Shown here in pieces: positions 14,514 through 61,810 of a DNA stretch of 64,000 bases. Numbering within the stretch: position 1 is the stretch's first letter; each line of letters begins with the position of its first letter. The notes under the pieces were generated by a model. The model was not told the DNA's origin, made no database searches, and saw nothing but the letters and a program-made list of their open reading frames with translations. Location of the stretch: positions 1 to 64,000 of IMG/VR virus record IMGVR_UViG_3300033070_001371. One strand, given 5' to 3'. Both the position numbers and the translations under genes were made by a program. The DNA is from a virus (taxonomy: Duplodnaviria; Caudoviricetes).

Positions 14514-15212
14514 ATGGACGACACGAAGAGCCGCGACCTGGAGCTGTGGCGCCAGTGGAAGAACACGCAGTCGCAGGCTGATCTCGACGCGCTGATCAAG
14601 CAGATGTGGCCAGTGATTCGCCGCGAGACTGCGCGGTGGGCGGCGATCATGTCGCCGGCGATGCTCGACAACGAGGCAAAGCTCCTGGCGATCAAGGCGT
14701 TCCAGACCTACAACCCGACCGTCGGCGCTGCGCTCTCGACGCATCTAACCAATCAACTCCAGAAGCTCTCGCGCACGGCGTACGCACGGCAGTCTACGCT
14801 GGGCGTGCCCGAGCAGAAGCGGCTGCTCTTCAACAACTACAACCGCGCATTCCGCCAGCTCGAAGACCTCCACGGACGGCCGCCGACACTCGACGCTATC
14901 GCCGACCACATGCGGCTGCCTCCCGCGAAGCTGCGCGAGGTCGTCGACGTAGTCGGCAAGAAAGAGTTCATGGAGTCAGGTGACGGACCTGCGTTCGTTC
15001 AGTTCATGGACGACCCGGAAGTCGTGCACCTCGCCTACCACGACATGACGCCGGTCCAGAAGAAGATCTTCGAGATGCGAACGGGCTACGGAGGTAACGC
15101 CGTAAAGAGTGGCGCGGGAATCATGCACGCCACCGGCCTCACGCAGGGACAGCTCTCTTACCAGCTCAACCAGATCAAGGCGTTGCTGGAACGGGCGCAG
15201 CGGTTACGCTAA
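14514..15212 (+). CDS. Phage sigma-70-family factor (FliA/SigF-like, divergent)
   Basis: Region 2 (LIKQMWPVIRRETARW...AIKAFQTYNPTVGAALSTHL), region 3 HTH (GRPPTLDAIADHM) and a region 4-like C-terminus. Confidence 0.75.
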   Translation: MDDTKSRDLELWRQWKNTQSQADLDALIKQMWPVIRRETARWAAIMSPAMLDNEAKLLAIKAFQTYNPTVGAALSTHLTNQLQKLSRTAYARQSTLGVPEQKRLLFNNYNRAFRQLEDLHGRPPTLDAIADHMRLPPAKLREVVDVVGKKEFMESGDGPAFVQFMDDPEVVHLAYHDMTPVQKKIFEMRTGYGGNAVKSGAGIMHATGLTQGQLSYQLNQIKALLERAQRLR

Positions 15213-44892: not shown

Positions 44893-45717
44893 ATGGCTAA
44901 GACGAACAACCCGCTGCTAGACCTGCACTTCCGTGATGTCGGAACGCACCCGATTCGGTCGTCGAAAGAGGAGTACGATCTCTTTACGGCGTACCAAGAG
45001 GCGCGTACTCGCGCAGAGTTGTCGGCGAGTCCGAGCGAGCGGGAAAGGTTTCAAGCGAAGTGCGACAAGCTGCGCAACGAGATCGCGAGCGGCTACTACC
45101 GCTTCGTGATCAAACGCGCAAAACACAGGTCGCACGACGAAACGCTGTTCGCTGAGTTGATCTCCGCCGGCTACGAAGGGCTGCTCCATGCGATCACGCT
45201 GTTCGATCCCAAGCGCGGCAACCGCTTCCTGACGTACGCAGCGAGCTGGATCAACGTGAAGATGCAGGAAGCTACGTATCGCGTGCGTACGGTGCATGTG
45301 CCGAACCACACACGCAAAGAGATGCGACGCACGCGCGTTGAGAACGAGCGCAAACAAGCGCTCGGCGAGCACGTCGAACACTTCGAGGAACCGTCAATCG
45401 CGTCGATCGACAACGTAGTTATCGTCGACGAAAACATCGACGTCGAAGCCGATGTACAGCGCCAACGCGTTGACCCGCTGGCGCTGCTGGCGCAGGCGCA
45501 GCTGACGCGGGTCGAACGGTTGGTGCTGATCTACGCGTTTGGGCTGCGCGGTGGCGAACCTAAAGACGCGCGGACGATCGGGCAAATCCTGTACGAGATC
45601 GACGGCTCGCAGATGACGGAGCCGCGCGTAGAAGAAGTTCAGATCCGCGCCCTAGCACGCCTGCGAGCTCACCTCTCCGAAGAGGAGATCATGAGCTTCG
45701 CAGACGTGCTGGGGTGA
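44893..45717 (+). CDS. Phage sigma-70-family factor (RpoD/RpoH-like region 2)
   Basis: ELISAGYEGLLHAITLFDPKRGNRFLTYAASWI; region 4 LTRVERLVLIYAFGL...RALARLR. Confidence 0.88.
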   Translation: MAKTNNPLLDLHFRDVGTHPIRSSKEEYDLFTAYQEARTRAELSASPSERERFQAKCDKLRNEIASGYYRFVIKRAKHRSHDETLFAELISAGYEGLLHAITLFDPKRGNRFLTYAASWINVKMQEATYRVRTVHVPNHTRKEMRRTRVENERKQALGEHVEHFEEPSIASIDNVVIVDENIDVEADVQRQRVDPLALLAQAQLTRVERLVLIYAFGLRGGEPKDARTIGQILYEIDGSQMTEPRVEEVQIRALARLRAHLSEEEIMSFADVLG

Positions 45718-48233: not shown

Positions 48234-48931
48234 TCGTCCTCCACGTGGCCTTCCGGCCGAATAGGATCGTCTGCGGAATCAGTGGCGTAGTGCGGACCCT
48301 CCTCTGCCCGCGCCTGAGATCGAGCCAAGATGTCGTCGAAGACGGCACGGTCTTCGGGCGCCATCTCGTTTGGGTCAACGATCAACGAGCTGTCCGTCTG
48401 CACGACGGGCGGACGACGCACAGGTGGCGAGACATAGTCATCTACCAGCTCCTCCGCACCCTTTTCGGAGCCGCCGTACGCCGGTACGACAGCTGCCGCC
48501 ATCGGCATGTGAGGGTGTTGCCCCGCGATCATGAGCGCAGGCGAAGACGCAGCCTGCTTATCGAGGACTCGATGCTTAGGGGCGGGCGGAATCAGTTGCG
48601 GCGGAGCCACCGGCCGAAACATGTCGTTCTTCTTCGGCGGAGTCGGCGATGGGGCCGGACGGGGCGCGGGACGAGACACAGGCGCCGCCTGCGCCTGACC
48701 CGTAGCGCGCTGCGTGGGAGCCGCTGGGCGCTGGACAGGCGGAGGCGCCGCAGGTTCTGGCGGCGCCGTGTCCATGTTCTTGACGAGCACGAGCAGCTCG
48801 ATCTTGCCAGGCTCAGTGCTCTCGTTCTTGAACACGAAGTTCTCGTATTCCGGCGCGACAACGAAACCCTTGGTCTGCATGTAAACGGCCAGCGCCTTGA
48901 TGACGTCGCCGTGTTCGAGTTCCATACGCAT
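48230..48931 (-). CDS. Hypothetical protein with a Pro-rich disordered region
   Basis: Coupled to the SNF2 gene (TAATG) and to the nuclease gene (ATGA). Confidence 0.6.
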   Translation of the reverse strand: MRMELEHGDVIKALAVYMQTKGFVVAPEYENFVFKNESTEPGKIELLVLVKNMDTAPPEPAAPPPVQRPAAPTQRATGQAQAAPVSRPAPRPAPSPTPPKKNDMFRPVAPPQLIPPAPKHRVLDKQAASSPALMIAGQHPHMPMAAAVVPAYGGSEKGAEELVDDYVSPPVRRPPVVQTDSSLIVDPNEMAPEDRAVFDDILARSQARAEEGPHYATDSADDPIRPEGHVEDE

Positions 48932-50976
48932 TACTCAATGACCTCCACGTCGGCGACGGGGCGCGCGACGTTCGCAGCGTACTTGCACTTCGCCCGAAAG
49001 GGGAGGATCTCGTCGCGCGCGCAGGTCGTTTGCCGGTCGCACCCCGCGCACGCAATCAGGTCAGTCAGGGTCAGCGTGATGCTCTCCTTGAAGAGCAGGA
49101 CCTGCGCGACGTAGCGATCGAGACCCCACGACGCGTCTGAGGTGAGCAGGCGGTAGACCGTCATCGCCCGGTGCTGGCCTGGGCGGTTGTTGCGGTCCTG
49201 TGCCTGCCGGTATTGGAGCGGGTCCCACGGCAGCGAGTAGAAGATCGTGTAATTCGCAGCTGTGAGCGTGATGCCGATGCCGGTGCTGACCTGCCCGATG
49301 TAGACACGGCACTTCGGGTTGTCCTGAAAACGGTCGATGCGCTTCTGGCGCGCGAGCGTCTGGCCATCGACGCGCACGTAGTCGATGCCGAGGGCCTTGG
49401 TCGCGGCTTCGAGGTCGTCGAGCTCCTCGGTCAGGTTCGCCCAGACGATGATCTTGTTGGTCTCGTCCGTCTCCAGGATCAGCGCGAGCTGCTCCTTGAA
49501 GAGGTCGAGCTTGGGGTTCTCGATGTCGCGCAGCACGCGGCGCTCAGGCGTCGACTGCACGACCTCACACTTCTTGGTGTACGGGCGGATCTTCGCCGCA
49601 ACGCACGCATCCATGCGCGGGCACGCGTCGCAGATCGAGTAGTCGGCGCCCTGGATCACGAAGCCAGAGAGGACCTGGAGCATCTTGTTGACGCGCGTCG
49701 CGCCGTGCGGGAGGCGCACAGACTGACGCTGCGCCGCGAACTCCTCGGTGACGCGCGACGGCTCGGCGTAGAGCAGCTCCGGCGTCACAGACATCGCCAT
49801 CTCCATAACGAGCTCGTTGTAGCGGGCACGCTGCGCGACGCCGAGGTCGAAGTGCAGGTCGACGGTCGTGACCGGTGGCAAGTCGAGGCAGTCGGCCTTC
49901 TTCATGCGGAGCGCAACGCTGCGGAAGCGCTCGTTGAGCTCGTTGAGGAAACGGAAGCCAACGACAACGTGCTTGTTCTTCGGCGAGTAGACGACGTGGT
50001 GCTCCTCGAACTTGTGGTACGGGAGCGGCACGAGCGCCGGGGAGAGGAAGTAGAGCTGGCCGTAGAGCTTGCGCGGGTCGTCGCCGGGCGTGCCGCTCAG
50101 GCAGTAGCGGCGCACGGCCTTGGCTGACAGCTCGATCGCGGCCTGGGTCTGCCCCGAGGCCCAGTTGCCGAGGTAGTGACTCTCGTCCGCGACGATCGTG
50201 TCGTAGTCGAGGTTATAGAGCGGGTGGGACGCCGCGCGACGTAGCCGCGCTTCGGCCTCAGCGGTGAGAGGCGCGAGCTTGTAGCGCTCGCGCTGCGCGG
50301 GGGTGATCGCGAGCTCGCGCTCGGCGTCTGTCGCAGCCTCGCGCTCCATGCGCACGCGGGTGTATGACGCAAGCACGACGTCGGCGGTCTGCGCCGCCGC
50401 CTCGGCCTCGGGCGTGCCATCCCAGATGACGGCATTCCACGCGCCGCGCGAACAACGTACGACCTCGCGGGCCCAGGACTCCAGCACGACGGGCGGCCCA
50501 AGGATGAGCGCCCGACGGAACGCGCCCTGCGCGCGAAGCACGCGAAAAGCGTCGATCGCAGTGCGCGTTTTCCCGGTGCCCATGTCCCAGTCGAGGAACG
50601 AGCGCCACCAGTGGACCAGTCTCGCAATTCCCAGACGCTGGTGGATGTACGGCGTAAAGCCAGGGGTGAAGAAGTCATCACCAACAGGAAGAGGTGCCGG
50701 CGCGCGGGCCGTCCACGCAGCTTCGGCGGCAGCCCAGGCTTTGTCGGCAGCACGGACAGCAGCCAGATGATCGCGCGCAGCGTCATCCCAAGGTGCCTGG
50801 GGCATGAGCTTGCGCAAGTCCTCGAAGACCCACTTCGCAAACGGGAAGTAGGCTGGAAACAGCCACGCGCTGTCAGCGTGCACGCCGCCCCACGCGCGTG
50901 CGAGGAACGACTGCTCGGAGGCGGCGACGCGAAACACAGGGATAGCCTTTCTGAGAAGGGTGCCCGTTACGAGCAT
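48931..50976 (-). CDS. SNF2-family helicase/translocase with two Cys4 motifs
   Basis: DMGTGKT, DESH, LSGTP, GIGITLT, QAQDRNNRPGQ; AAGGAG Shine-Dalgarno. Confidence 0.88.
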   Translation of the reverse strand: MLVTGTLLRKAIPVFRVAASEQSFLARAWGGVHADSAWLFPAYFPFAKWVFEDLRKLMPQAPWDDAARDHLAAVRAADKAWAAAEAAWTARAPAPLPVGDDFFTPGFTPYIHQRLGIARLVHWWRSFLDWDMGTGKTRTAIDAFRVLRAQGAFRRALILGPPVVLESWAREVVRCSRGAWNAVIWDGTPEAEAAAQTADVVLASYTRVRMEREAATDAERELAITPAQRERYKLAPLTAEAEARLRRAASHPLYNLDYDTIVADESHYLGNWASGQTQAAIELSAKAVRRYCLSGTPGDDPRKLYGQLYFLSPALVPLPYHKFEEHHVVYSPKNKHVVVGFRFLNELNERFRSVALRMKKADCLDLPPVTTVDLHFDLGVAQRARYNELVMEMAMSVTPELLYAEPSRVTEEFAAQRQSVRLPHGATRVNKMLQVLSGFVIQGADYSICDACPRMDACVAAKIRPYTKKCEVVQSTPERRVLRDIENPKLDLFKEQLALILETDETNKIIVWANLTEELDDLEAATKALGIDYVRVDGQTLARQKRIDRFQDNPKCRVYIGQVSTGIGITLTAANYTIFYSLPWDPLQYRQAQDRNNRPGQHRAMTVYRLLTSDASWGLDRYVAQVLLFKESITLTLTDLIACAGCDRQTTCARDEILPFRAKCKYAANVARPVADVEVIE

Positions 50977-51003: not shown

Positions 51004-52731
51004 ATGACCATCGACGGCGGAATCGGAATGGGCTTCGACGACACGCTGCTGGGCTTCGGCGGACGGCACGCGGCGTCGCATCCGAACCCGATGTTTGACT
51101 ACCTGACCGGGTTTGTGCCCCGAAAGCTGAAGGACCTGTTCAAGTGGGCAGAGTACCTCGGGTTCCACTCAGCGCACGTCTACGGCGTCGTTCGCAAATT
51201 CGGCGAGTACCCGATCACGCGCTTCATCTACGAGTCGAACTCGGAAGAGGAAAAGTCGCGCCACAAGAAGCTCTTCGAGGAAGACCTTCGGCTGAAGGGC
51301 TTCCTGACGCTGGTGAGCTACGACGTGTGGCTCTATGGCAACGCGTTCGTCTCGGTCTACGAGCCGATCAAGCGCGAATTGGTATGCCCGCACTGCGGAA
51401 CGAAGGAAGACGTCGCGGCTGCGACGTACAAGTTCAACCTCTCGAAACTCCAGTTCACGCACGACTGCAAGCAGTGCAAGCGCAAGGCAGTGGAATCGGC
51501 AGTCGAAGACTACAAGTTGAAGGATTCGACGAAGATCACGCTGATTCGGTGGGACCCGAAACTGATCGACATCGAGCACAATCGCGTCACGGGTGAAAGC
51601 GTCTACTACTACCAGATCCCGCGCGATGACGTGTCGAAGGTGCGGGCGGGCAACAAGACGTTCATCAACCACATGCCGATGGAGATCCTGCGCGCGATGC
51701 AGGAGCGCAAGACGTTCCGCTTCGGCGATGGGTCACTCTACCACCTCAAGATGCCTGGGCCAGCCGGGGTGCAGGCACAATGGGGCTTTCCGCCGATCAC
51801 GAGCGCGATCAAGAACTTCCTCTTCACCGCGGTGCTTCGTCGCGCAAACGAAGCCATCGCGTTGGAACACATTACGCCGTTCAGGATCATCCACCCGCTC
51901 GCGGCGAGCGGTCAGGGAGACCCGATCACGACCATCCCGCTCGATCGTTGGAAGACGGAGATGGAGCGAAACTGGCGGCTCTTCCGACGGGACCCGCTGC
52001 GCATCCAGTTCTCGCCGGTTCCTGTCGGTGTACAGAACGTCGGAGGCGAAGGTCGCGCGCTTCTCACGCTCGGCGAGCTTCAAGAAGCCGAGAAGTCAAT
52101 CGTGCTTTCGCTTGGCGTGCCGATGGAGTTCCTTGCGGGCGGCCTCGGACAGACGCGCGGCGAGATCACGCTCCGCATGATCGAGAACCAGCTCCAAACG
52201 CACATCGAGAACTTGAACTCACTCGTGCAGTGGGTCGAGCGCAAGGTCGCGCTGTTCATGGGGTGGCAGTCGATCAAGATGCGACTCGCGGACTTCAAGA
52301 TGATCGACGACGTCGAGAACAAACAGCTCAAGATTCAGCTGTGGCAGAGCCAACTGCTCTCGAACACGACGATGGCCGAGATGCTCGACATCGACCTCGA
52401 CCACGAGCGTAAGCAACGACGCGAGGACGCGCTCGCCGACGCGCGCGCCGAGCAGGAAACGCAGGTCGCACTCAAGAAGCTCCAGCAGTCGCTGTCAACG
52501 CAGGCGCAGAATCAGGCACTCCAGTCCCAGGGGGGCCTCGCGTACGACCAACAAGCAATCATCGCCAAGGCGCAGCCGATCGCCGAGGAGATGGCGCAGT
52601 ACGACGCAGGCACCAAGCGCTCGCGGCTTGACTCACTCAAGGGTGAAGACTTCATTATGTACTGCGTTACCAAGGAGCTGCTGGAGCAGATGCAGCAAGA
52701 CCAGATGGCATCAATGAAGGCGCAGGGCTGA
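51004..52731 (+). CDS. Portal protein with a Zn-ribbon insertion
   Basis: YGNAFV, IRWDPKLI, HLK...WGFPP, IVLSLGVPMEFL pattern; CPHC...CKQC insertion; start at 51004 or 51028. Confidence 0.72.
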   Translation: MTIDGGIGMGFDDTLLGFGGRHAASHPNPMFDYLTGFVPRKLKDLFKWAEYLGFHSAHVYGVVRKFGEYPITRFIYESNSEEEKSRHKKLFEEDLRLKGFLTLVSYDVWLYGNAFVSVYEPIKRELVCPHCGTKEDVAAATYKFNLSKLQFTHDCKQCKRKAVESAVEDYKLKDSTKITLIRWDPKLIDIEHNRVTGESVYYYQIPRDDVSKVRAGNKTFINHMPMEILRAMQERKTFRFGDGSLYHLKMPGPAGVQAQWGFPPITSAIKNFLFTAVLRRANEAIALEHITPFRIIHPLAASGQGDPITTIPLDRWKTEMERNWRLFRRDPLRIQFSPVPVGVQNVGGEGRALLTLGELQEAEKSIVLSLGVPMEFLAGGLGQTRGEITLRMIENQLQTHIENLNSLVQWVERKVALFMGWQSIKMRLADFKMIDDVENKQLKIQLWQSQLLSNTTMAEMLDIDLDHERKQRREDALADARAEQETQVALKKLQQSLSTQAQNQALQSQGGLAYDQQAIIAKAQPIAEEMAQYDAGTKRSRLDSLKGEDFIMYCVTKELLEQMQQDQMASMKAQG

Positions 52732-52732: not shown

Positions 52733-53143
52733 ATGGAAGATTGGATGGAACGACAACGGGCCGCCCGCGAAGAAGCGCAGCGCGGACCGCGCTCGGGCTT
52801 CGCAGAGCCCGCCGAGGAGCGTCCCCGCCGAATGAAGGTCTTCCATGAGACCTACTCAATCTTCCGCCCATGGCAGGGCTGCCAGCGTTGCAAAAAGGCG
52901 ATCGAAGAGAACGACACGCTAGTGCCCGAAGAGGGTGACTACGTCTGCCCTCACACCCGTCACGCCGAGTACATCACGCTGATGAACCGATTGCGCAACG
53001 CGGACAACGCTGGGCCGTGGAAGCTCCAAGCGCGCGAGTTCTCGAACGACCGAGGCGAGATCTTCGTTACGATCGCGTGGGAAGAACCCGAAGAAGCGCA
53101 AAACGAAGCGCGAGCGCGCCCCCGAGGCGTGCCGCGTCTGTAG
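52733..53143 (+). CDS. Hypothetical protein (CxxC...CxH)
   Basis: Follows the portal gene by 1 nt. Confidence 0.6.
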   Translation: MEDWMERQRAAREEAQRGPRSGFAEPAEERPRRMKVFHETYSIFRPWQGCQRCKKAIEENDTLVPEEGDYVCPHTRHAEYITLMNRLRNADNAGPWKLQAREFSNDRGEIFVTIAWEEPEEAQNEARARPRGVPRL

Positions 53144-53167
53144 CGCGGCACGCCCCGAGGCGAGCGG

Positions 53168-53530: not shown

Positions 53531-53584
53531 CTCTCCTTTGGCGAGCAGAAGGGCTCACCACGGGCTTTTACCGCGTACAGACGC

Positions 53585-53596
53585 TAGACTTCGCAT
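53585..53596 (+). promoter_or_regulatory. Putative -10 box (TAGACT) of the RNAP gene, with an adjacent TTTACCGCGT site
   Basis: TAGACT, then 6 nt, then GTG at 53597; the motif site is at 53567-53576. Confidence 0.55.
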
Positions 53597-56500
53597 GTGA
53601 TGAACGAGCTCACGCCTGTGCTCACCAGCGCGACCACGCTGCGCGAGAAGCTGCACAACAAGACGACCCAGGCCCTGACGGCCGCGTTCCCGCTCGACCT
53701 GAAGGGACGAACATTGGAAGTCAAGGACGTGCGTGTGCACGGGCAAGACTACGGACCAGCTGAAGAGTACGCGGCGATCACCAAGGGCTCATCGCTGTAC
53801 GAGCCGGTCAAGGGTACGCTCATCCTCAAGGATGCGCACGGCAAAGTCGTCGATGAAGCAAAGAACTTCACCCTCGTGCATGTACCGTTTCTGACGGCAC
53901 GCCACACCATCATCGCCGACGGCAACGAATATCAAGTCGCCAACCAGCTGCGACGCAAGCCGGGTGTATACACACAGCGCGCGGACAACGGCGAACTGAA
54001 GACCGTGTTCAACCTCGGACGAGGCAAGAACTTCGATCTTGCCTTCAACCCGGACAAGGGCACGTTCCACCTCCAGTACGGCACATCAAATCTGCCCCTT
54101 TACGCCGTATTGCGCGGCCTCGGTGTCGAGCACAACCAGATCGCCAAACACCTCGGAGAGGGTGTCGCCAAGGCCAACGAAGAAGAGCACGGACATCAGG
54201 TCGCGACCACCATCAGCAAACTCTATGCGAAGCTGGAACACCCTGCCGTCATGGACGCCAACGCGCCGCACGAAGCAAAGATCGAAGCCGTGCGCAAGCG
54301 CTACGACCAATCGACGCTGGACCCCGAAGTCACAACCGTGACGCTCGGGGCCCCTCACGCCAAGGTCACGCCCGACGCGCTGCTCGTGGCCGCCAAGAAG
54401 ATGCTCGACGTGCACGCAGGCAGGACGCCAGTCGACGACACCGACTCGCTGAAGTTCAAGACGTTCCACGCGCTAGACGACTTCGTCGCGGAGCGCATCC
54501 GTCTAACGGCGCGCCAGTGGGCACCCAAGGCCAAGATGGCGCTGACGGGCAAGACTGTGATCCGCGACGCGCTCAAGCCGGCGCCGTTCTCGGACTCGAT
54601 CCGAAAGTTCCTGACAACGTCCTCGCTCTCCAGCGTGCCCACCGGCATCAACCCGATGGAGATCATCGACCACGCCGTGAAGGTGACGAGCCTCGGCGAG
54701 GGTGGCATCCCATCGGACCGCGCGATCCCGATGGACGCACGCATGATCCACAACACGCACTTCGGCGCGCTCGACCCCATCCGCACGCCGGAGTCGAATC
54801 ACTCCGGCGTCGACATCCGCGCAACGATCGCCGCGCACCGCGACGACAAGGGCAACCTGTACACCGTTTTGCGCAACGTAAAGACCGGCAAAGACGAGTT
54901 TGTGCGCGCGGGCGATCTACACAAGTACGTCGTCGCGTTCCCGCACCTGGAGCTGAAGGGCACGGTCGACGCGTTCGTCGACGGCCACCAGACGCGCGTA
55001 CCGGCGTCGCGCGTGACGCACCAGCTCGGGCACGTCAAGCACCTCTACTCCCCGGCGACGTCGCTGATCCCGATGATCCACTCGATCCAGGGCAACCGCG
55101 CCATCATGGGGTCGAAGATGGGTACGCAGGCTCTGCCGCTTGTCGAGCGCGAGGCTCCGCTCGTCCAAGTCATGTCGCACCACCCTGACGGCCACTCGTT
55201 CGAGGCGATCTACGGGCACATGATCGTGCCGACCGCGCCGGTCGCAGGCACGGTGGCGAAGGTCGACGACCAGTTTGTGTACATCAAGCCGCACGCCGAG
55301 AAGCGGAGCGCAGCGGGCGACGCAGCCCTGGTCAAAGTGCCCTACTACGAAAAGTTCCCGTTTCCGTCGAAAACGTTTCTTGATCACGCCGTTGACGTGA
55401 AGGTCGGCGACAAGGTCGAAGAGGGTCAGCGCCTCGCGGAATCGAACTACACGCGCGACGGCGTGCTCGCGCTCGGCAAGAACCTGCGCGTCGGCTACCT
55501 GCCGTACTACGGGTACAACTCCAACGACGCGGTCGTGATCTCCGACGCGGCGTCGAAGAAGCTGACCAGCGAACACATGTACCGCGAGGTCTTCCCGCTC
55601 GGCACGGGCATCGAGCTGAACCGCGCGAAGCACCATCTCTACTACGGCGCGAAGTACCCCGCGCAGATGTACAGCAAGCTCGACGAGGGGGGCGTCATCA
55701 AGAAGGGCGCGAAGGTCGACCCGAAGGACCTGCTTGTCGCGGGCCTGATGAAGCAGGCCGTGACCGGCACCGACGCGATGCTCGGACGCCTCGGCAAGTC
55801 ACTCGTCAAGCCGTTCAAGGACATCGCGCTCGTGTGGGACCACGGCGTGCCAGGCGAAGTCGTGGACGTGGTGCGCGCGAGCGGCCAGATCACGATCCTC
55901 GTGAAGACGCGCGAGGCCATGCAGGTCGGCGACAAGCTCGCGGGCCGCTACGGCAACAAGGGCGTCGTCGCAAAGATCGTCCCGGACCACGAGATGCTGC
56001 GCGACGAGCAGGGGCACCCGCTCGACCTGCTGCTCACCTCGGCCGGCGTCGTCTCACGCATCAACCCGGCGCAGGTCATCGAGACGGCCGTGGCGAAAGT
56101 CGCGGACAAGACCGGCAAGCCGATCGTTTACGACAACGCAGCGGGGCATAACGCCGTAAAGTGGGCGCGCAATCTGATGCGCGAGCACGGCGTCAAGGAC
56201 AAGGAGGAGCTCTACGACCCGGTGCTCCAGCGCAAGGTCGTGGGCGCGGACGGCAAGGGCGTGCTCGTCGGCAAGCAGTACATCTACAAGCTGTTCAAGA
56301 GCACCGACACCAACTTCGCCGGGCACGGCGTCGGGCCGTACGACCTCAACGAGCAGCCACTCAAGACCGGCGGCGACGAGAGCGCCAAGGGCCTCGGCAA
56401 AATGGAGTTCGACGCGCTGCTCGCGCACAACGCACGCAACTTCCTGCGCGAGGCCGCGACGGTGCGCGGCCAGAAGAACGACGAGTACTGGAAGGCCGTG

Positions 56501-58144
56501 CAGACGGGGCTACCGCTGCCGGCGCCAAAGCCGTCGTTCGCGTTCAACAAGTTCCTCGGGCTGCTCGAAGGCTCAGGCGTCAAGGTCGACAAGCGCGGCT
56601 CAAAGTTCGCGCTCCTGCCGATGACCGACAAGGACGTGCTCGCGCGCAGCGCGGGCGCGATCGAGCACGGCGCGACGGTGCGCGCGAAAGACCTCAAGCC
56701 CGAGACCGGCGGCCTGTTCGACCCGCGCAAGACCGGCGGCACGCAGGGCACACTCTTCGCGCACATCGACCTGCACGAGCCGGTGCCGAACCCAGTGTTC
56801 GAGGAGCCGGTGCGGCGCCTGCTCGGCATGACCGAGACGAAGTTCAAGGAAGCGCTCCGCGAGCACGGCGGCACTTGGTTTCGTTCGGAGCTCGCGAAGA
56901 TCGACGTGCCGCGAAAGCTGCGCGAGCTGCGCGAGCAGCTCAAGAACGCCAAGGGCCCCGCGCTCAACGACGTGGTCAAGCAGATCAAGTACCTCGAAGC
57001 GCTTCAGGCCCACAAGCTCGGACCCGCCGAGGCGTACGTGATCAGCAAAGTGCCGGTCATCCCTCCGGTGTTCCGTCCAATTCAGCCCGGTGTGCGCGAC
57101 CCTTCGCAGCTGATGGTCGCCGACGCGAACAAGCTCTACGGCCAATTGTTCGACTCGAACAAAACGCTGAAGACGACGGCCGTCGCATCCGACTTGGGCA
57201 AGCACCGCCAGGACCTCTACGAAAAGATGGAGGAGCTGTACGGCACGACGCTGCCGCACGATCCCAAACTCCAGCAACAGAAGGTCAAGGGGCTGCTTGC
57301 ATCGGTAGCCGGTGTTGGCTCGCCGAAGGGTGGCTTCTTTCAGCGCAAGCTGATGCGCCGCACGCAGGACGTCTCGGGACGTGGCACCGCTGTGCCTGAC
57401 TCAAACCTTGGGATGGACGAGGTCGGCATCCCCGAGCCGATGTTGTGGCAATCGCTCGACAAGTTGATCGTCGCGCGCCTGATCCGCACCGGTTACCCCG
57501 CGCTTCAAGCGCGCGAGATGGTGAACGCGAAGGCGCCAGCCGCGCGCGACGCAATGCTCGCCGAGGTGCGAGACCGCCCAGCGATCATCAACCGGGCGCC
57601 GACGCTGCATCGAGGCTCGATCGTCGCCGCGTACGCCAAGCCCGTACCCGGCAAGACGATCCGCGTCTCGTCGTTCACCGAGAAGGGCATGAACCTGGAC
57701 TACGACGGGGACACCTTGCAAGTGCACTTCCCGATCGGCGCTGAGGCTGTCGAGGACGCCAAGAAGATGACGCTGAGTAACATGTTGCTCAGCGACCAGC
57801 AGCGGGACAAGCTGATGGTGTTCCCGCAGCACGAGGCGATCATCGCGTTCACGCTGGCAGCGAAGCACACGACGCCGACGGGTCCTGTACGGAAGTTCAA
57901 GACCCGTGAAGACGCGCTCGCAGCGTATCGGCGCGGAGAACTGAAACTCTCCGACGCCATCGAGATCGAGAACGAAAAGCGCGCCGAAGCCGAAGCGCTT
58001 GCAGACGGCTTCGGAATGGGCGCGGAGCTCGATGTACCGTTCTATCCCGTCGAGCCCGACGAAGCGCTATCCTACTTCCCGCCAGAGCTGCTCACGGGCG
58101 AAGGCGACGAGGACGAGGACCCCGATGTTCGACTTCTTGAATGA
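53597..58144 (+). CDS. Multisubunit RNA polymerase, beta fused to the N-terminal half of beta'
   Basis: Beta motifs QLRRKPGVY, DPIRTPE, NRAIMGSKMGTQA, GYNSNDA, GDKLAGRYGNKG, GKMEFDAL; beta' motifs KPETGGLFD, HIDL, PVIPPVFRP, SGRG, NRAPTLHR and the catalytic NLDYDGD. Confidence 0.93.
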   Translation: MMNELTPVLTSATTLREKLHNKTTQALTAAFPLDLKGRTLEVKDVRVHGQDYGPAEEYAAITKGSSLYEPVKGTLILKDAHGKVVDEAKNFTLVHVPFLTARHTIIADGNEYQVANQLRRKPGVYTQRADNGELKTVFNLGRGKNFDLAFNPDKGTFHLQYGTSNLPLYAVLRGLGVEHNQIAKHLGEGVAKANEEEHGHQVATTISKLYAKLEHPAVMDANAPHEAKIEAVRKRYDQSTLDPEVTTVTLGAPHAKVTPDALLVAAKKMLDVHAGRTPVDDTDSLKFKTFHALDDFVAERIRLTARQWAPKAKMALTGKTVIRDALKPAPFSDSIRKFLTTSSLSSVPTGINPMEIIDHAVKVTSLGEGGIPSDRAIPMDARMIHNTHFGALDPIRTPESNHSGVDIRATIAAHRDDKGNLYTVLRNVKTGKDEFVRAGDLHKYVVAFPHLELKGTVDAFVDGHQTRVPASRVTHQLGHVKHLYSPATSLIPMIHSIQGNRAIMGSKMGTQALPLVEREAPLVQVMSHHPDGHSFEAIYGHMIVPTAPVAGTVAKVDDQFVYIKPHAEKRSAAGDAALVKVPYYEKFPFPSKTFLDHAVDVKVGDKVEEGQRLAESNYTRDGVLALGKNLRVGYLPYYGYNSNDAVVISDAASKKLTSEHMYREVFPLGTGIELNRAKHHLYYGAKYPAQMYSKLDEGGVIKKGAKVDPKDLLVAGLMKQAVTGTDAMLGRLGKSLVKPFKDIALVWDHGVPGEVVDVVRASGQITILVKTREAMQVGDKLAGRYGNKGVVAKIVPDHEMLRDEQGHPLDLLLTSAGVVSRINPAQVIETAVAKVADKTGKPIVYDNAAGHNAVKWARNLMREHGVKDKEELYDPVLQRKVVGADGKGVLVGKQYIYKLFKSTDTNFAGHGVGPYDLNEQPLKTGGDESAKGLGKMEFDALLAHNARNFLREAATVRGQKNDEYWKAVQTGLPLPAPKPSFAFNKFLGLLEGSGVKVDKRGSKFALLPMTDKDVLARSAGAIEHGATVRAKDLKPETGGLFDPRKTGGTQGTLFAHIDLHEPVPNPVFEEPVRRLLGMTETKFKEALREHGGTWFRSELAKIDVPRKLRELREQLKNAKGPALNDVVKQIKYLEALQAHKLGPAEAYVISKVPVIPPVFRPIQPGVRDPSQLMVADANKLYGQLFDSNKTLKTTAVASDLGKHRQDLYEKMEELYGTTLPHDPKLQQQKVKGLLASVAGVGSPKGGFFQRKLMRRTQDVSGRGTAVPDSNLGMDEVGIPEPMLWQSLDKLIVARLIRTGYPALQAREMVNAKAPAARDAMLAEVRDRPAIINRAPTLHRGSIVAAYAKPVPGKTIRVSSFTEKGMNLDYDGDTLQVHFPIGAEAVEDAKKMTLSNMLLSDQQRDKLMVFPQHEAIIAFTLAAKHTTPTGPVRKFKTREDALAAYRRGELKLSDAIEIENEKRAEAEALADGFGMGAELDVPFYPVEPDEALSYFPPELLTGEGDEDEDPDVRLLE

Positions 58145-58610
58145 GTTGTTGGGCGCGCACGCTTCTGGCGCGCCCCCGAAAAGTGCGCCGTCCGGCAGCG
58201 AGCACGTAGCGTGTCTCCAGGCGATCCTCGCTAAGAAGTACGCGCTGCTGCTCGCCTACGTTTCGTACGGCGATCAGCTCCGGTCGATCTGCCGGGACGG
58301 CGTGTTCGAGCACTTTCAAGAGCACATCAAGGAAGAACGCGACGCCATCTACCAACTCAACAAGAAGATCACGGCGCTCGGCGGTGATGCTGTCGTATCT
58401 CCAGGCCATGTGCCTTCCGTGCCGCTCGACCAACCTCGCGCCGTGTTCGAGGCAGTGCTGAACTTGGAGCAGGCCGTCGTCGCGCTGTGGTCCGATTTGT
58501 TCCACAAGACCCCCGACGACGTGCCGCTCAACGCGATGGCGCAAGATGGTGCCCTCGTCGACCAGCAACACGCCGACGACATGCGGCGCTACCTTCGGAG
58601 TGAGTGCTGA
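58125..58610 (+). CDS. Ferritin-like four-helix protein (bacterioferritin/Dps fold, degenerate ferroxidase site)
   Basis: EHFQEHIKEE...KKITALGG, LNLEQ, DQQH; ATG 58125 after GAGGA. Confidence 0.65.
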   Translation: MFDFLNELLGAHASGAPPKSAPSGSEHVACLQAILAKKYALLLAYVSYGDQLRSICRDGVFEHFQEHIKEERDAIYQLNKKITALGGDAVVSPGHVPSVPLDQPRAVFEAVLNLEQAVVALWSDLFHKTPDDVPLNAMAQDGALVDQQHADDMRRYLRSEC

Positions 58611-58987
58611 TGCCGGACCTCAAGGACATCGCGCGCGGCGTAACGACCCGCCTCAAGAAGCGTCAGCGAGGTTTTCACTTCGACAAGGAGCCGGGTTTTT
58701 ACGGCGTAACAAAGAGCTTCGGCGACGCCGCCAAGCAGAAACTCGCCAGCGAAGCGCGCGCTCGTGCGATCCGCAAGGTCGCGGCGAAGTACGCGCTGCT
58801 TGACGAGTCGGGCGAACCTGTGGAAGCGCTCGCGAAGCTCTTTGCACAGAGTAACTTCGGTTACGGCGACGCGCCCGTCGCCCCGAAGCGTACCGGCGAC
58901 CCCCTCTGGGGCGCGTCGATGGGTATGCCGGCGGAGCCCGGCGACCGCAATGGGCTGAGCCGCAATCTCACGTACGGAGGAGTTTGA
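58610..58987 (+). CDS. Small putative head protein
   Basis: TGATG coupling; KLASEARARAIRKVAAKYAL. Confidence 0.55.
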   Translation: MPDLKDIARGVTTRLKKRQRGFHFDKEPGFYGVTKSFGDAAKQKLASEARARAIRKVAAKYALLDESGEPVEALAKLFAQSNFGYGDAPVAPKRTGDPLWGASMGMPAEPGDRNGLSRNLTYGGV

Positions 58988-59325
58988 TGATCACGAAGGA
59001 AGCGCTCGACGCCGCGCGGTCGCGCGGTGCACAGAAGATCTTGGCTCGCTACGGCCTCGACAAGGTCAGCGGAATCATGTCGACCCTCGGCAGCGCGGCT
59101 ACGCGCGCGCTCGGCGCCGGGACCAAGGCGTACCAGCACGGCGGCGGCAGCATGATGCAGAACGTCGGCAAGGGCATCGCGGCCGGAGCCAAGGGCTTCC
59201 AGCGTGCGGGCGGCGTGCCGGCGGCGGGCAAGGCGCTCGGCGTGGCCGCAGCGGGAGGGGCGGCAGCGTACGGCGCGGGACGCGCGTTCGGCGCCGGGCA
59301 GGCCGCGTCGCAGCAGCAGCAGTGA
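58987..59325 (+). CDS. Small Gly/Ala-rich putative internal head protein
   Basis: TKEALDAARSRGAQKILARYGLDKVS plus a glycine zipper. Confidence 0.6.
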   Translation: MITKEALDAARSRGAQKILARYGLDKVSGIMSTLGSAATRALGAGTKAYQHGGGSMMQNVGKGIAAGAKGFQRAGGVPAAGKALGVAAAGGAAAYGAGRAFGAGQAASQQQQ

Positions 59326-59345
59326 CACACGGGCGCGAGGCAGCG

Positions 59346-59357
59346 TAACCTTTCGCC
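59346..59357 (+). promoter_or_regulatory. Putative -10 box (TAACCT), leaderless
   Basis: TAACCT, then 6 nt, then ATG at 59358; no Shine-Dalgarno. Confidence 0.55.
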
Positions 59358-61157
59358 ATGCCCACGACGGTCGGCCAGTTCCTGATCAATGACGTGATGC
59401 CCGAGGGTTACAAGATCTCGGGTCCGCTCACGAACAAGGCGCTACACGACCACGTCGTCGGTCTCGCCAAAGCGGACCCTCAGAAATACGTCTCGACGGT
59501 GCTCGCGCTCAAGCGGCGCGGCGACGAAATCGCGACGCTCGAAGGCATCTCGGTCGGGCTCGATGACATTGAGCCCGACTACGAGGCGCGCGACGCGATC
59601 GTGCGCCCGGCGCTCGCGAAGCTCGACAAGCTCAAGGACCCGGGAGCCCGCGAGCGCGTGATCGTCGAGACGCAGGCGCAACTGCTCGCGCACACCAAGC
59701 AGCACCCTGGTTCGATGACCCACATGGCGCTCTCAGGAGCGCGCGGCAATCCGGCGCAGCTCATGAAGATCGTCGCCACGCCGCTCGCGACAGTGAATCC
59801 AAAGCACGGCGTGGTTCATCAGCTGATCGACCGCTCGTACTCCGAAGGCCTGACTCCAGCCCAGTACTGGTTGACAGGACCAGAGATCCGCGAGAACGAG
59901 GTCAAAGCGCGCATCTCCGTCTCGGAGCCGGGAGAGATGGCCAAGGTTCTCGTCGCCAACATGATCTCTAAGGTCGTCACGACGACCGACTGCGGGACCA
60001 TGAACGGCGTAAAGATGTCGATCGACGACGGACACGTGCTCGATCGCTTCACGCAGGCTGACCACGGCTTGCCGCGAAACACCCTCGTCACGCCGCAGCT
60101 CGTCCAGCAACTCAAAGCGCGCCACGTGGACCGTGTACTTGTGCGCTCGCCGATGACATGCGTCGCGCAACACGGGGTCTGTCAGATGTGCCAGGGTCAC
60201 AACGAGAAGGGACAACCGCACCCGATCGGCATGACTGTAGGCGTGCGTGCCGCGCAAGCGATGGCTGAACCGTTGACGCAGATGGCGCTTTCGTCGCGCC
60301 ACGGCACGCTCACGGTGAAGGCCACGGACAAAGCGCCGACCGGCTTGAAGGGTGTGCGCCAGCTGTTGGAAGTTCCTGCCGCTTTCCGCCACGAAGCGGT
60401 GCTGGCGCCAGAGCACGGCACCGTGACGAAAGTCGAGAAGGCGCCGCAAGGTGGCCACTATATCTACCTCGGCGCCAAGAAGGTCTACGCCGGGCCTGAC
60501 CTGACGCTGCGCGCGAAGGCGGGAGACGTGGTCGAGCGCGGCGATGCGCTGACCGACGGCGTGCCTCACCCTGCGAAGGTCGTCGGCTACAAAGGACTTG
60601 GTGCCGGTCGTGCGTACTTCGTAGACGCACTGCACAACTTATACAAGAATGAAGGGATCAACCTTGATCGCCGCCACTTGGAACTTCTCGCCAAGAGTGA
60701 GATCAATCACGTACGGCTACTCGACGCTGATCCCGACCACCCAGAGCTGCTCAAGGGCGACATCGTCAACTACAACGCCTTCCGCGAGGCGTACCAGAAG
60801 GGCTCCGCTCGCGTGCAGGTAGATGACGCTGTAGGGAAGCGGCTGGGGCAAGAGGTGTTGCATCACACTGTCGGTACACCCGTGACGCCTGCGCTCGCCC
60901 GCGATCTCAAAGCGCACGGGGTTGCTGAGGTCTATGTCAACCGGTCTATGCCTCCGGTGGAATTCGTCATGAAGCCGTTCACAATGAATCCTCTGCTGGA
61001 GAAGGACTGGATGGCCCGCCTCGCGCACCGCTATCTCAAGAGCACGATTCAGGAGGCGGCACACTTCGGCGAGACCGCCGACATCCACGGAACCCACCCC
61101 GTACCGGCGTATGCTTTCGGCGCGGAACTTCACCATGGAGCCGGCGGTGCATTCTGA
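59358..61157 (+). CDS. RNA polymerase beta' C-terminal half
   Basis: TTVG, SGARGN, SYSEGL, DCGT, VRSPMTC...CQMCQG, AAQAMAEPLTQM (trigger loop), GLKGVRQLLE, RRHLELL. Confidence 0.92.
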   Translation: MPTTVGQFLINDVMPEGYKISGPLTNKALHDHVVGLAKADPQKYVSTVLALKRRGDEIATLEGISVGLDDIEPDYEARDAIVRPALAKLDKLKDPGARERVIVETQAQLLAHTKQHPGSMTHMALSGARGNPAQLMKIVATPLATVNPKHGVVHQLIDRSYSEGLTPAQYWLTGPEIRENEVKARISVSEPGEMAKVLVANMISKVVTTTDCGTMNGVKMSIDDGHVLDRFTQADHGLPRNTLVTPQLVQQLKARHVDRVLVRSPMTCVAQHGVCQMCQGHNEKGQPHPIGMTVGVRAAQAMAEPLTQMALSSRHGTLTVKATDKAPTGLKGVRQLLEVPAAFRHEAVLAPEHGTVTKVEKAPQGGHYIYLGAKKVYAGPDLTLRAKAGDVVERGDALTDGVPHPAKVVGYKGLGAGRAYFVDALHNLYKNEGINLDRRHLELLAKSEINHVRLLDADPDHPELLKGDIVNYNAFREAYQKGSARVQVDDAVGKRLGQEVLHHTVGTPVTPALARDLKAHGVAEVYVNRSMPPVEFVMKPFTMNPLLEKDWMARLAHRYLKSTIQEAAHFGETADIHGTHPVPAYAFGAELHHGAGGAF

Positions 61158-61779
61158 CTTCGCGGATCGACTGAACGCCGTAAAGACAGCGGCCCGGGCG
61201 CGCGTGCTCGGACGGTACGGGCTTAAGGACCTGTTCCGCGAGCACACCATCGCCCCGGCTGCGCCCGGTGTCACCAACAAGGCCAAAGCATTCGGCAAAC
61301 ACGTCGCAGAATTCGGACGCGAGGCTGTCTTCGGTAGTCCGATCACCGTCGCAAAGCAGCTCGCTGACCGCTACAAGCAAACCGGTAGCGTCGCCCGAGC
61401 GATGGGCGGCCACGCCAAAGACTTCTACCTCTCACCCGGATCGCCGACATGGCTGAAGGCCCTATCCCTCGGTATGCCCGCGATGGAGCTCGGTAACATC
61501 GCGCTGCGCGGCGACCCAGAGACTCGCAAGGGCGACATCGCACACGCGATCTCGGGCATGGCGGCTGCGCCGTTCACGGCGCGACTCGGCCTGCTCGGCA
61601 TCCCAGTCCAGGGCGCGGTACAGGGTGCCGCGCGCTACTTGGGGTCGAAGTTCGACCCGAAGCCTGCCCCAACACCCACGCCCGAAAATATCGAGCTGGA
61701 CGTACCGAAACACCTGATGCGCGCGTGGAAGAGCAACTCTCCGCTCGCGCTGAGCGACGACAACCCCGCTGCGACCTAG
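61147..61779 (+). CDS. Putative internal head protein
   Basis: GTG 61147 after GGAG (alternative 61111); VKTAARARVLGRYGLK; amphipathic Gly-rich C-terminus. Confidence 0.55.
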   Translation: MHSDFADRLNAVKTAARARVLGRYGLKDLFREHTIAPAAPGVTNKAKAFGKHVAEFGREAVFGSPITVAKQLADRYKQTGSVARAMGGHAKDFYLSPGSPTWLKALSLGMPAMELGNIALRGDPETRKGDIAHAISGMAAAPFTARLGLLGIPVQGAVQGAARYLGSKFDPKPAPTPTPENIELDVPKHLMRAWKSNSPLALSDDNPAAT

Positions 61780-61810
61780 ACTACGCACTGGAGCCAAGGA
61801 GCACCCCCCA

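Follow-up and report, generated by a model that had tools for sequence, protein, structure and literature searches.

Positions 53,597 to 61,157 raise the question of what kind of RNA polymerase (RNAP) an uncultured high-GC phage would make from a β subunit fused to half of β′, and with which partners and at what stage it would work. The window is the whole analysed stretch of 64,000 nucleotides. A first-pass annotation had described a 1515 aa fusion of β with the N-terminal part of β′, joined seamlessly, and a 599 aa gene 1.2 kb downstream carrying the bridge helix, a Zn site and the trigger loop. Both descriptions held, the first by ORF, Pfam and E. coli alignments, the second by Pfam and E. 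coli alignment. The features of the two chains are:

53597..58144, plus strand: RNAP chain 1 gene, 1515 aa, a complete compact β fused to the β′ N-terminal module (ORF, translation)
53597..56587, plus strand: β module of chain 1, residues 1 to ~997 (alignment with E. coli β)
56576..56617, plus strand: β/β′ junction, residues 994-1007, no linker (E. coli β and β′ alignments)
56711..56773, plus strand: site of the missing β′ N-terminal Zn ribbon, compared with E. coli 68-99 (mafft alignment)
56972..57022, plus strand: putative clamp-helix region of β′ (motif look-up)
57692..57712, plus strand: catalytic loop NLDYDGD, residues 1366-1372
57977..57985, plus strand: K-R-A, candidate processing site at the body/tail boundary, residues 1461-1463
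57986..58141, plus strand: acidic C-terminal tail of chain 1, residues 1464-1515 (52 residues)
59358..61157, plus strand: RNAP chain 2 gene, β′ C-terminal module, 599 aa

We observed that Pfam placed Rpb2 domains 2, 3 and 6 (residues 121-923; domain 6 at 134 bits) and then Rpb1 domains 1 and 2 (1009-1392) in chain 1, with Rpb1 domains 4 and 5 in chain 2. Against the PDB, chain 1 matched β chains (E 8e-69) and β′ chains (E 6e-32), and chain 2 matched β′ (E 1e-34). The β end of chain 1 aligned to the C-terminus of E. coli β and was followed directly by the β′ N-terminus. On the rpoC profile TIGR02386, residues 1091-1460 of chain 1 covered positions 163-536 and residues 2-481 of chain 2 covered positions 549-1070, a clean cut of β′ between the two chains. 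The β module was without the E. coli lineage-specific inserts and had the flap tip (723-736). The DPBB-B lysine motif GNKGV was retained within residues 783-790 and NLDYDGD, just past which the β′ portion ends, was also found in chain 1; both catalytic barrels are in one polypeptide, as had been claimed. Alignment of chain 2 with E. coli located TTVG at residues 3-6, the bridge helix at 170-202, the Zn2 cysteines at 212/268/275/278 and the trigger loop at 295-316. An AF2 model of chain 1 residues 941-1515 (pLDDT 80.9) had as its top Foldseek matches only bacterial β′, cyanobacterial γ or plastid RpoC1 (E 1e-28). The reported deletion of the β′ N-terminal Zn ribbon was borne out by mafft, which left a 32-residue gap and none of the ribbon cysteines (E. 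coli C70/72/85/88) in chain 1; the ribbon was not found in any aligned clade member, split or one-chain. The segment 56972..57022 we take, from our own reading and from what is known of bacterial RNAPs, to be the clamp helices, the expected docking site of sigma region 2, and the VLPPxxRP/lid-rudder segment beside it aligned with E. coli β′ 240-345.

Judged from these alignments, all catalytic signatures of a two-barrel RNAP are intact in the two chains, and we consider it likely, taking the explanation as a whole, that the phage makes its own two-barrel enzyme of bacterial type, whose catalytic core these genes encode. Chain 1 would supply all of β, both catalytic barrels and the clamp helices, and chain 2 the bridge helix, second Zn site, trigger loop and jaw region; the two would reassemble non-covalently, as cyanobacterial γ and β′ do. 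The enzyme is predicted to be insensitive to rifampicin, because chain 1 has other residues at the pocket positions Q513, D516 and R529 (alignment with E. coli β).

The interval between the two genes holds three ORFs:

58125..58610, plus strand: Dps/ferritin-like gene, 161 aa, its first codons within the end of the chain 1 gene (Pfam PF00210)
58610..58987, plus strand: 125-aa gene, its start overlapping the preceding stop (TGATG), coding-type GC3 0.77
58987..59325, plus strand: Gly/Ala-rich 112-aa gene, its start overlapping the preceding stop, GC3 0.89

These had been called three unrelated genes. The number was right; "unrelated" is not quite apt, given the start-to-stop overlaps, which suggest translational coupling, and the presence of the Dps/ferritin-like gene in the RNAP gap of 18 of the 24 IMG/VR relatives. 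This gene matched PF00210 over 134 of 142 profile positions (E 3.6e-12), and its ATG at 58125 is preceded by GAGGA. Homologues of the 125-aa gene occur in the gap of ~10 relatives; neither 58610..58987 nor 58987..59325 had a family match. The RNAP genes and the three small genes make up one tightly packed plus-strand run.

Two ORFs could also arise from one gene if an intron or intein interrupted it, if it contained a programmed frameshift or if the assembly was wrong. In the Vibrio phages D181 and D148, related genes do contain a group I intron that carries a homing endonuclease, and many homologues have inteins, in many cases directly after NLDYDGD. In the window, however, the 1.2-kb gap contains coding-type ORFs and no Rfam intron, chain 2 starts from an ATG of its own at the homologous residue and has no C-intein, and chain 1 ends in a conserved tail rather than an N-intein. 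Arash, D69 and 23 independent IMG/VR contigs show the same split, and their gaps range over 0.64-3.8 kb and differ in what they contain. The gap ORFs, the separate ATG and the recurrence in cultured phages refute a broken gene as far as sequences can do so, and we give this reading hardly any probability. Nor is the β/β′ junction an assembly artefact, since it is present in the cultured phages and is spanned by all 261 collected homologues, as by every one of the top 120 and top 150 database matches.

We located the split between E. coli β′ ~554 and 572 (TTVG), in a surface loop just before TTVG in which E. coli has a 17-residue insertion. The cyanobacterial rpoC2 profile starts at E. coli ~590, and the phage cut is thus ~20 residues upstream, in agreement with the first-pass placing of it slightly upstream of the rpoC1/rpoC2 split. 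The two-gene layout was also found in the cultured Salmonella phage Arash, in the Vibrio phages D69, D148 and D181, and at 24 IMG/VR loci. The collected homologues (n=261) comprised 206 split and 50 one-chain β::β′ forms, the latter ~2040 aa long (about 2000-2090); at one metagenomic locus, L037, the one-chain form is a single 2040-aa ORF at the DNA level. On these sequences, the layout is common to hundreds of phages in a very large clade. Phylogeny with bacterial RNAPs, rooted with one or three of them as outgroup, gave the same topology, with one-chain forms as a basal grade and split forms as one clade of 205 (support 1.0); support was low at basal nodes, the bacterial outgroup branch was long, and the one-chain protein P0158 was placed inside the split clade. 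Because one-chain forms make the basal grade of this rooted tree, the split is, on this phylogeny, derived: an ancestral one-chain β::β′ protein was cut before TTVG, as the term "re-cut" had implied.

How far is this arrangement known? Arash (gp206 1525 aa, gp216 606 aa; OQ632216.1; PMC10585845) and Vibrio phages D69/D148/D181 share with the window the two-chain layout, the junction, the cut before TTVG, the missing Zn ribbon, an RNAP gene placed after the portal gene and a small gene, the lack of α and ω, and the presence of sigma genes. Their chains, however, are only 29-35% identical to the window's (29% for chain 2 against gp216, over the full length and with the same N-terminus), and the Arash and D69 gaps contain other genes (nine in Arash, mostly on the opposite strand) and no Dps/ferritin-like gene. 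The first-pass annotation had allowed that the architecture might already be characterised; it is indeed present in published Arash, where the enzyme itself is not characterised and gp206 is labelled simply "beta", with no mention of the fusion (PMC10585845). The one-chain metagenome phage proteins (e.g. P0225 and the L037 ORF) share the clade, the junction and the missing Zn ribbon, but are continuous where the window's enzyme is cut. Our literature search found no published description of the fused-and-split layout and no paper on the one-chain phage proteins.

Among cellular enzymes, the Helicobacter and Wolbachia fusions still have the Zn ribbon, contain a linker and function together with α and ω. 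Their NCBIfam models (NF007172, NF011417), in which the β C-terminus is joined to the β′ N-terminus as in the window, were among the best profile matches (312 bits against a cut-off of 5372), but they describe cellular orthologues of ~2840-2890 positions, whereas the window has a separate β′ C-terminal chain. In cyanobacteria and plastids (γ/RpoC1 + RpoC2), the cut in β′ separates the catalytic barrel from the bridge helix that follows it, as here, and the AF2 model of β′-N matched γ and plastid RpoC1 over nearly the whole target length (TM 0.52-0.55 normalised to target). Their cut, however, falls after TTVG, β is a separate subunit, and α and ω are present. The phiKZ/AR9 jumbo-phage enzymes are likewise phage two-barrel RNAPs with no α or ω and with β′ split after the catalytic barrel; they differ in having β in two or three chains with no fusion, two enzyme sets and no sigma-family factor, where the window has β whole and fused, one set and sigma-like genes (PMC7598289). 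PHROG families of the phiKZ/AR9 type matched the window weakly. The mReC phages (Weinheimer and Aylward 2020, PMC7481178) are also uncultured tailed phages with a bacterial-type RNAP that branches separately from the cellular ones, but their table gives separate β (~900-1560 aa) and β′ (~900-1050 aa) with T4-like structural genes, and the paper mentions no fusion for its own enzymes; six metagenome ids from relatives of the window were all absent from its supplements. What is new here is the one-chain basal grade, the position of the split relative to the cyanobacterial one, the Dps/ferritin-like gene in the gap, and the K-x-A before the tail.

We also looked for partner subunits. The absence of α and ω noted for the window extended to the whole 119-kb record (~69% complete), in which neither α (PF01000, PF01193) nor ω (PF01192) was found, and to the complete Arash and D69 genomes; the same models gave matches in 14/14 control genomes. 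The phage chains might then assemble on the host α dimer, perhaps with ω, into a hybrid enzyme. Helicobacter RNAP retains α despite its β::β′ fusion, to our knowledge cellular enzymes all use α, and no phage substitute for α was identified in the searched genomes. However, identity between the phage chains and bacterial ones is only ~27%, a virion-packed enzyme would need to bring host α along, and the phiKZ/AR9 polymerases have neither α nor ω and form no stable association with host subunits (PMC7598289; PMC13282480). We consider such a hybrid improbable. The fusion is in any case not required for α-free function, because the phiKZ/AR9 enzymes are active without α though split into four or five chains (PMC7598289). 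The first-pass observation was confirmed in every detail tested, and its interpretation was supported in part, for the anatomy and for the re-cutting of the enzyme; its further idea, that fusion may remove the need for α-mediated assembly, is speculative.

Two sigma-like genes were present:

44893..45717, plus strand: sigma-70-family factor, 274 aa (PF04542 36-39 bits, phrog_351)
14514..15212, plus strand: second sigma-like protein, 232 aa (matching Arash gp10 at 30% identity, E 6e-24)

The first is 36% identical to the Arash sigma at 121 kb and is syntenic with the Arash and D69 sigma genes ~9-10 kb upstream of RNAP; the second matched Pfam Sigma70_r3 at 30.3 bits, above the cut-off. We propose that the phage core would use these factors through its retained clamp helices and flap tip. 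They might instead redirect host RNAP (cf. T4 gp55, SPO1 gp28), with the core using another, unrecognised initiation factor; sigma factors are found in many phages that have no RNAP of their own (PMC7824862), and phiKZ-type enzymes have non-sigma specificity subunits (PMC7598289). The retention of the putative sigma-binding parts, the presence of sigma gp10 together with the core in Arash particles, and the synteny of one sigma gene with the RNAP region in all three genomes make redirection a distinctly weak candidate.

Upstream of the RNAP lie:

48931..50976, minus strand: SNF2-family helicase, divergent neighbour of the portal gene (PF00176 + PF00271, phrog_62)
51030..52731, plus strand: portal gene (31% identity to Arash gp204 portal, E 8e-102)
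52733..53143, plus strand: small conserved gene in the portal-RNAP interval, at the same position in 20/24 relatives

The portal ORF opens at 50611 and the gp204 match begins at ORF residue 158; the true start is probably near 51030. In Arash and D69 a small gene likewise lies between portal and RNAP, and the opposite strand carries a helicase gene, a few genes upstream of the portal gene. The portal, gp218-220-like, protease-like and capsid genes are syntenic with Arash, the RNAP genes being inside this conserved portal-to-capsid block. In L037, an ORF with weak matches to portal families (PHROG) precedes the one-chain gene by two genes.

In sucrose-gradient-purified Arash particles, gp206 gave the most spectra (3516) of all proteins, and MS also picked up gp216, sigma gp10 and neighbouring proteins (PMC10585845). 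Of its two enzymes, phiKZ packs one in the virion (PMC7598289). Because of the Arash proteomics and the head-module position, packaging of the RNAP in the virion is plausible. We lean slightly towards an enzyme that is packed into the capsid, injected, and transcribes the early genes, which would make the phage independent of host RNAP. The polymerase could also be made after infection for middle and late genes, with host RNAP reading the early ones and the Arash detection being carry-over. The Arash proteome does include enzymes that are clearly not structural (ribonucleotide reductases, RNA ligases, a kinase), the particles were purified by sucrose gradient only, and the authors themselves allow carry-over of abundant proteins (PMC10585845). 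On the other side stand the top spectral count of gp206 and the location of the RNAP genes, which all relatives examined, the one-chain form included, have embedded between their portal and capsid genes. The K-x-A at the body/tail boundary of chain 1 also matches a motif that is conserved where the capsid protein begins, at its N-terminus, and that is over-represented among head-block genes. The genome has a single RNAP set, which if injected would need to serve all stages, and this is possible. Synthesis after infection seems to us rather unlikely, though a serious contender.

The virion reading touches on the acidic tail. Of the 81 homologues with a tail, 80 have K-x-A at the boundary, where 6.6% would be expected; these counts come from related sequences and not from independent events. 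The tail after K1461-R-A1463 might be a disordered targeting or propeptide segment that is removed by the prohead protease in this subclade, a suggestion we make tentatively and regard as doubtful. The tail is kept in close relatives, whereas the Arash and D69 chains stop at the split with neither tail nor K-x-A boundary. AF2 confidence was < 50 from the K-R-A onward, and the tail was mostly disordered in the model, with two weak short helices over the conserved motif ALSYFPPE..TG (1489-1501).

We observed that the multisubunit RNA polymerase (RNAP) of this phage is encoded by two open reading frames. The first-pass annotation had described them as a fused beta plus beta-prime N-terminal module and a separate beta-prime C-terminal module, and its anatomy proved correct; the coordinates, the Pfam domains and the structure matches all agreed with this description. 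The window, with a G+C content of ~63%, makes up the first 64 kb of a 119-kb IMG/VR virus record that is estimated to be ~69% complete.

RNAP reading frames
53597-58144, plus strand: chain 1 (1515 aa), beta followed by the beta-prime N-terminal module
59358-61157, plus strand: chain 2 (599 aa), beta-prime C-terminal module, 1.2 kb downstream of the chain 1 gene

Chain 1 contained Rpb2 domains 2, 3 and 6 (residues 121-923) followed by Rpb1 domains 1 and 2 (1009-1392), and chain 2 contained Rpb1 domains 4 and 5. Rpb2_6 and Rpb1_2 scored 134 and 65 bits in chain 1, against cut-offs of 23.4 and 25.3. When solved structures were searched, residues 82-985 of chain 1 matched bacterial beta (E 8e-69) and its residues 1091-1455 matched beta-prime (E 6e-32). 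Chain 2 matched the C-terminal half of beta-prime (E 1e-34). The rpoC profile TIGR02386 was covered at positions 163-536 by chain 1 and 549-1070 by chain 2. Since these ranges adjoin, the cut is clean, with no part duplicated or lost. Residues 941-1515 were modelled with AlphaFold2 using 42 homologues (mean pLDDT 80.9), and the best Foldseek matches of the model were without exception chains of bacterial beta-prime, cyanobacterial gamma or plastid RpoC1.

The two chains were further aligned with the E. coli rpoB and rpoC of a RefSeq record. The beta module is compact, without the large inserts specific to E. coli, and retains the flap tip (residues 723-736). The lysine motif of the beta-type barrel, GNKGV, lies within 783-790 (aligned to E. 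coli 1065-1073), and the Mg-binding loop (DxDGD) of the beta-prime-type barrel is present as NLDYDGD at 1366-1372, again in alignment with E. coli. The junction had been called seamless, and this was upheld: at residues 994-1007 the part aligning with the E. coli beta C-terminus directly enters the beta-prime N-terminus. Also as annotated, the beta-prime Zn ribbon (32 residues equivalent to E. coli 68-99, with four Cys) is missing from chain 1. The lid/rudder segment is present and aligns with E. coli, and the clamp-helix region was placed by motif look-up. Chain 2 begins M-P-TTVG and carries the bridge helix (170-202), the trigger loop (295-316, without the E. coli SI3 insert) and the second-Zn-site cysteines (212, 268, 275 and 278), all aligned with E. 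coli. The enzyme is predicted to work like a bacterial core. The rifampicin pocket differs from that of E. coli at Q513, F514, D516 and R529, and because of these differences the phage enzyme is predicted to be insensitive to rifampicin.

We considered whether these genes could be a misbinned bacterial rpoBC. This was ruled out, as the chains are only ~27% identical to the bacterial enzymes and their genes lie between the phage portal and capsid genes. An assembly artefact, or a single interrupted gene, was likewise ruled out. No Rfam intron was found in 53000-61500, neither end showed intein features, the gap between the two genes holds three coding ORFs, and 23 IMG/VR contigs as well as cultured phages show the same split. 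The cultured phages are the Salmonella phage Arash (gp206, 1525 aa, and gp216, 606 aa) and the Vibrio phages D69, D148 and D181, whose two genes are 29-35% identical to those of the window and whose chain 2 begins at the homologous residue. A beta plus beta-prime-N chain of ~1500 aa with a beta-prime-C chain of ~600 aa starting from TTVG is a feature of the Arash-like group, and the window shows it. In IMG/VR, 24 contigs, the longest of 191 kb, carry the chain pair. When residues 850-1250, which straddle the junction, were used as query in a word-index search, 712 matches were obtained, and the best 120 of these covered the full junction at >=60% identity and carried both Rpb2_6 and Rpb1_2. 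Residues 700-1515 were also compared exhaustively with representatives of 50%-identity clusters, and all 150 listed proteins spanned the junction. Judged from these sequences, the fused-and-split RNAP is a real, widespread and intact feature.

The homologues were sorted by a local phmmer of both chains against 261 collected proteins. We observed that 206 of the 261 end where chain 1 ends, and that 50 run on into a chain-2-like part. These 50 proteins (~2000-2090 aa, longer where they contain inteins) hold the complete beta and beta-prime in one polypeptide, which the window does not. One of these genes, on contig L037, is one uninterrupted ORF of 2040 aa. Phylogenies were built with FastTree (LG+gamma) from 1385-1425 HMM-aligned columns, and rooted either on E. 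coli alone or on E. coli, Acinetobacter and Staphylococcus. In these trees, whose deep nodes are weakly supported, whose outgroup branch is long and whose sampling is biased to the best matches, the one-chain forms were a basal grade under both rootings, and the split forms were nested among them as one clade of 205 (support 1.0) that includes the window, Arash and D69. This topology indicates that the enzyme was probably fused first and cut later. A metagenomic one-chain protein of 2565 aa, P0158, branched within the split clade; it may have been fused again, its sister group may have been split a second time and independently, or the gene call may be a read-through.

The sequence of the one-chain relatives is uninterrupted through the cut point. 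In the split forms, chain 1 ends and chain 2 starts within the loop that precedes TTVG, which in E. coli is 17 residues longer (554/555-571). The cut had been placed slightly upstream of the cyanobacterial rpoC1/rpoC2 split, and profile mapping bore this out. E. coli beta-prime 17-574 corresponded to positions 2-578 of the 619 of the cyanobacterial gamma profile, and E. coli beta-prime from 592 on to the rpoC2_cyan profile from position 3. The phage cut, between E. coli 554 and 572, therefore lies ~20 residues upstream of the cyanobacterial one, whose gamma/beta-prime boundary is near E. coli 575-590. The cyanobacterial cut coincides with that of the phages phiKZ and AR9 (PMC7598289). By this mapping, the phage cut and the cyanobacterial/phiKZ cut lie in the same inter-domain region, at a different bond.

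No alpha or omega gene had been seen in the window. With the models PF01000, PF01193 and PF01192, which matched 14 of 14 control genomes, none was found in the 119-kb record, nor in the genomes of Arash and D69, both complete. The first-pass annotation also proposed that the fusion may make alpha-mediated assembly unnecessary. Two sigma-family genes were present.

Sigma-family genes
44893-45717: sigma-70-family gene with Sigma70_r2, syntenic with the sigma genes that precede the RNAP of Arash and of D69
14514-15212: second sigma-like gene with Sigma70_r3, homologue of Arash gp10

The gene adjoining the first of these (45723-46946, minus strand) had a weak Sigma70_r4-like helix-turn-helix match (E 0.02).

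Known phage multisubunit RNAPs, such as those of phiKZ and AR9, are fragmented enzymes that work without sigma, and cellular RNAPs require alpha and omega. The clade of the window appears to be a third solution, in which the two large subunits are joined (ancestrally in one chain, in the window in two) and in which there is no alpha or omega gene, yet sigma-family factors are present. It differs from the cellular bacterial core (alpha2-beta-beta-prime-omega) in lacking the alpha and omega genes and the Zn ribbon. It also fell below the equivalog cut-offs, with 314 bits for rpoB PRK00405 (cut-off 896) and 158 and 170 bits for rpoC_TIGR (cut-off 963.5). The Helicobacter/Wolbachia fusion resembles it only in the join, since the beta-prime-C of the window is separate, and the cyanobacterial/plastid gamma/beta-prime arrangement only in the region of the cut. 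With the phiKZ/AR9 enzymes it has only the lack of alpha and omega in common. Those have the beta homologue in at least two chains, whereas the beta of the window is whole and fused. They come as two sets (virion and non-virion), whereas one match was found in the 69%-complete record, and Arash and the Vibrio phages each have the RNAP at one place in their record. They also have no sigma-70-family factor, whereas the window has the Sigma70_r2 and Sigma70_r3 genes. The mReC phages (PMC7481178) carry beta and beta-prime as separate proteins and are a different group; membership of that published clade was not supported. In the openly accessible full-text literature covered, which includes PMC10585845, PMC7481178 and reviews, no description of a fused or fused-and-split phage RNAP was found, and the Arash-like enzyme has no name there.

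The clade is frequent in metagenomes, and its members Arash (on Salmonella) and D69 (on Vibrio) are in culture, which makes a bench study possible. How a bacterial-type core assembles without alpha, what the beta-prime Zn ribbon contributes, and why beta-prime has been cut repeatedly in the same inter-domain region are questions that could be tested with it. A sigma-dependent RNAP of one or two genes would also be a useful tool.

When we examined the neighbourhood, the gene order was an SNF2 helicase (minus strand), the portal, a small gene, chain 1, three small genes and chain 2. Downstream of chain 2 were homologues of Arash gp218-220, then a protease-like homologue of gp222, and then the gene for the capsid protein. 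The gene that follows chain 2 (535 aa) was compared with the Arash gp217 helicase and showed no similarity to it. The position after the portal gene inside the head-gene block is a further feature of the Arash-like group that the window shares, and an ORF with weak matches to portal families precedes the one-chain gene of L037 by two genes. The three gap genes have start-to-stop overlaps with their neighbours, and the plus strand has no terminator-like site in the interval that separates the RNAP genes. In a scan of 52600-61900 for sigma-70 promoters and terminators, matches were no more numerous than in shuffled sequence. The portal ORF itself opens at a GTG at 50611, which would give it a 365-nt overlap with the divergent SNF2 helicase gene. 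Because its similarity to the Arash portal begins only at residue 158, the true start is probably near 51030.

In sucrose-gradient-purified Arash particles, gp206 had the most spectra of any protein (3516), and gp216, the sigma factor gp10 and many head-block proteins were also detected (PMC10585845). Arash is the only phage for which both chains have been reported in virions, by mass spectrometry (PMC10585845). Its authors proposed either early transcription by a packed enzyme or a carry-over of abundant proteins (PMC10585845). The conserved head-block position, which extends to the one-chain gene of L037, favours packaging; the occurrence of non-structural enzymes in the Arash proteome calls for caution. 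On balance, we lean slightly towards an RNAP that is packed in the virion. If so, it would join those of N4 and phiKZ as an injected polymerase of a new kind.

Chain 1 of the window extends past the end of Arash's chain by 52 acidic residues (1464-1515). The tails of close relatives keep an ALSYFPPE..TG motif within variable acidic sequence. A K-x-A is found exactly at the boundary of body and tail (K1461-R-A1463 in the window) in 80 of the 81 tail-bearing homologues, compared with 9 of the 88 tail-less ones and 6.6% expected by background, these counts being drawn from related sequences. From K-R-A onward the AlphaFold2 confidence collapses, with two weak short helices over the tail motif. 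A K-x-A is also conserved near the N-terminus of the capsid protein (residues ~27-29) in the window phage and in Arash, and the motif is enriched 3-6 times in several genes of the portal-to-capsid block (genome mean 0.49 per 100 aa).

K-x-A-rich genes
window 61811-63418: 14 in 535 aa
record 66849-67700: 9 in 283 aa
record 70012-71919: 9 in 635 aa (protease-like gene)

These observations fit a candidate targeting or propeptide segment that would be removed by a protease.

The first of the three gap genes encodes a Dps/ferritin-like protein.

Gap gene
58125-58610: Dps/ferritin-like gene (E 3.6e-12), overlapping the end of the chain 1 gene

This gene is kept in the gap in 18 of the 24 IMG/VR relatives, down to 33% identity, and no counterpart of it turned up in the sequenced regions of Arash and D69. 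By eye, the ferroxidase residues look only partly conserved. The protein could be a partner of the RNAP, a packaged DNA-binding protein, or something unrelated.

Taken jointly, these elements suggest a scheme that we offer tentatively, and that as a whole we regard as rather doubtful. A self-sufficient, bacterial-type, sigma-dependent RNAP, reduced to two chains (one of ~2040 aa in basal members) and with no need for alpha or omega, would be loaded with a sigma factor into the capsid and injected to start infection. In the subclade of the window, loading or silencing would go through the disordered acidic C-terminal tail, the prohead protease would cut this tail off at the conserved K-x-A site, and the Dps/ferritin-like product would be a co-packaged partner.

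We also evaluated a repeated motif, TTTAC-S-N-S-GT (mostly CTTTACGGCGT or CTTTACGCCGT), that has 62 copies in the 119-kb record at ~2-kb spacing. Copies in the window include those at 53567, 54099, 56151, 58698 and 60004, and one lies 30 nt upstream of the RNAP gene start. This TTTACGGCGT-like motif was ruled out as a promoter of the phage RNAP, as its 62 copies are mostly intragenic, in both orientations and unrelated to gene starts.

Many of the chain 1 homologues among P0021-P0263 (e.g. P0035, P0037 and P0063) reach 1800-2900 aa through inteins (Pfam PF14528, PF05204), with a recurrent insertion point directly after the catalytic DYDGD. Some of the intein-bearing homologues also have PF13238 (AAA_18) or PF18823 segments; the chain 1 gene of the window has none of these insertions. 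In D181 (L012, 5518-6429), a group I intron (Rfam RF00028, 100.7 bits) interrupts the fused RNAP gene after ~514 codons and carries a homing endonuclease gene; in the record the RNAP exons are annotated as separate hypothetical proteins. The same interruption is present in D148. The introns and inteins show only that mobile elements frequently target these genes. In D69, the sister phage of D181 and D148, the RNAP gene is uninterrupted.
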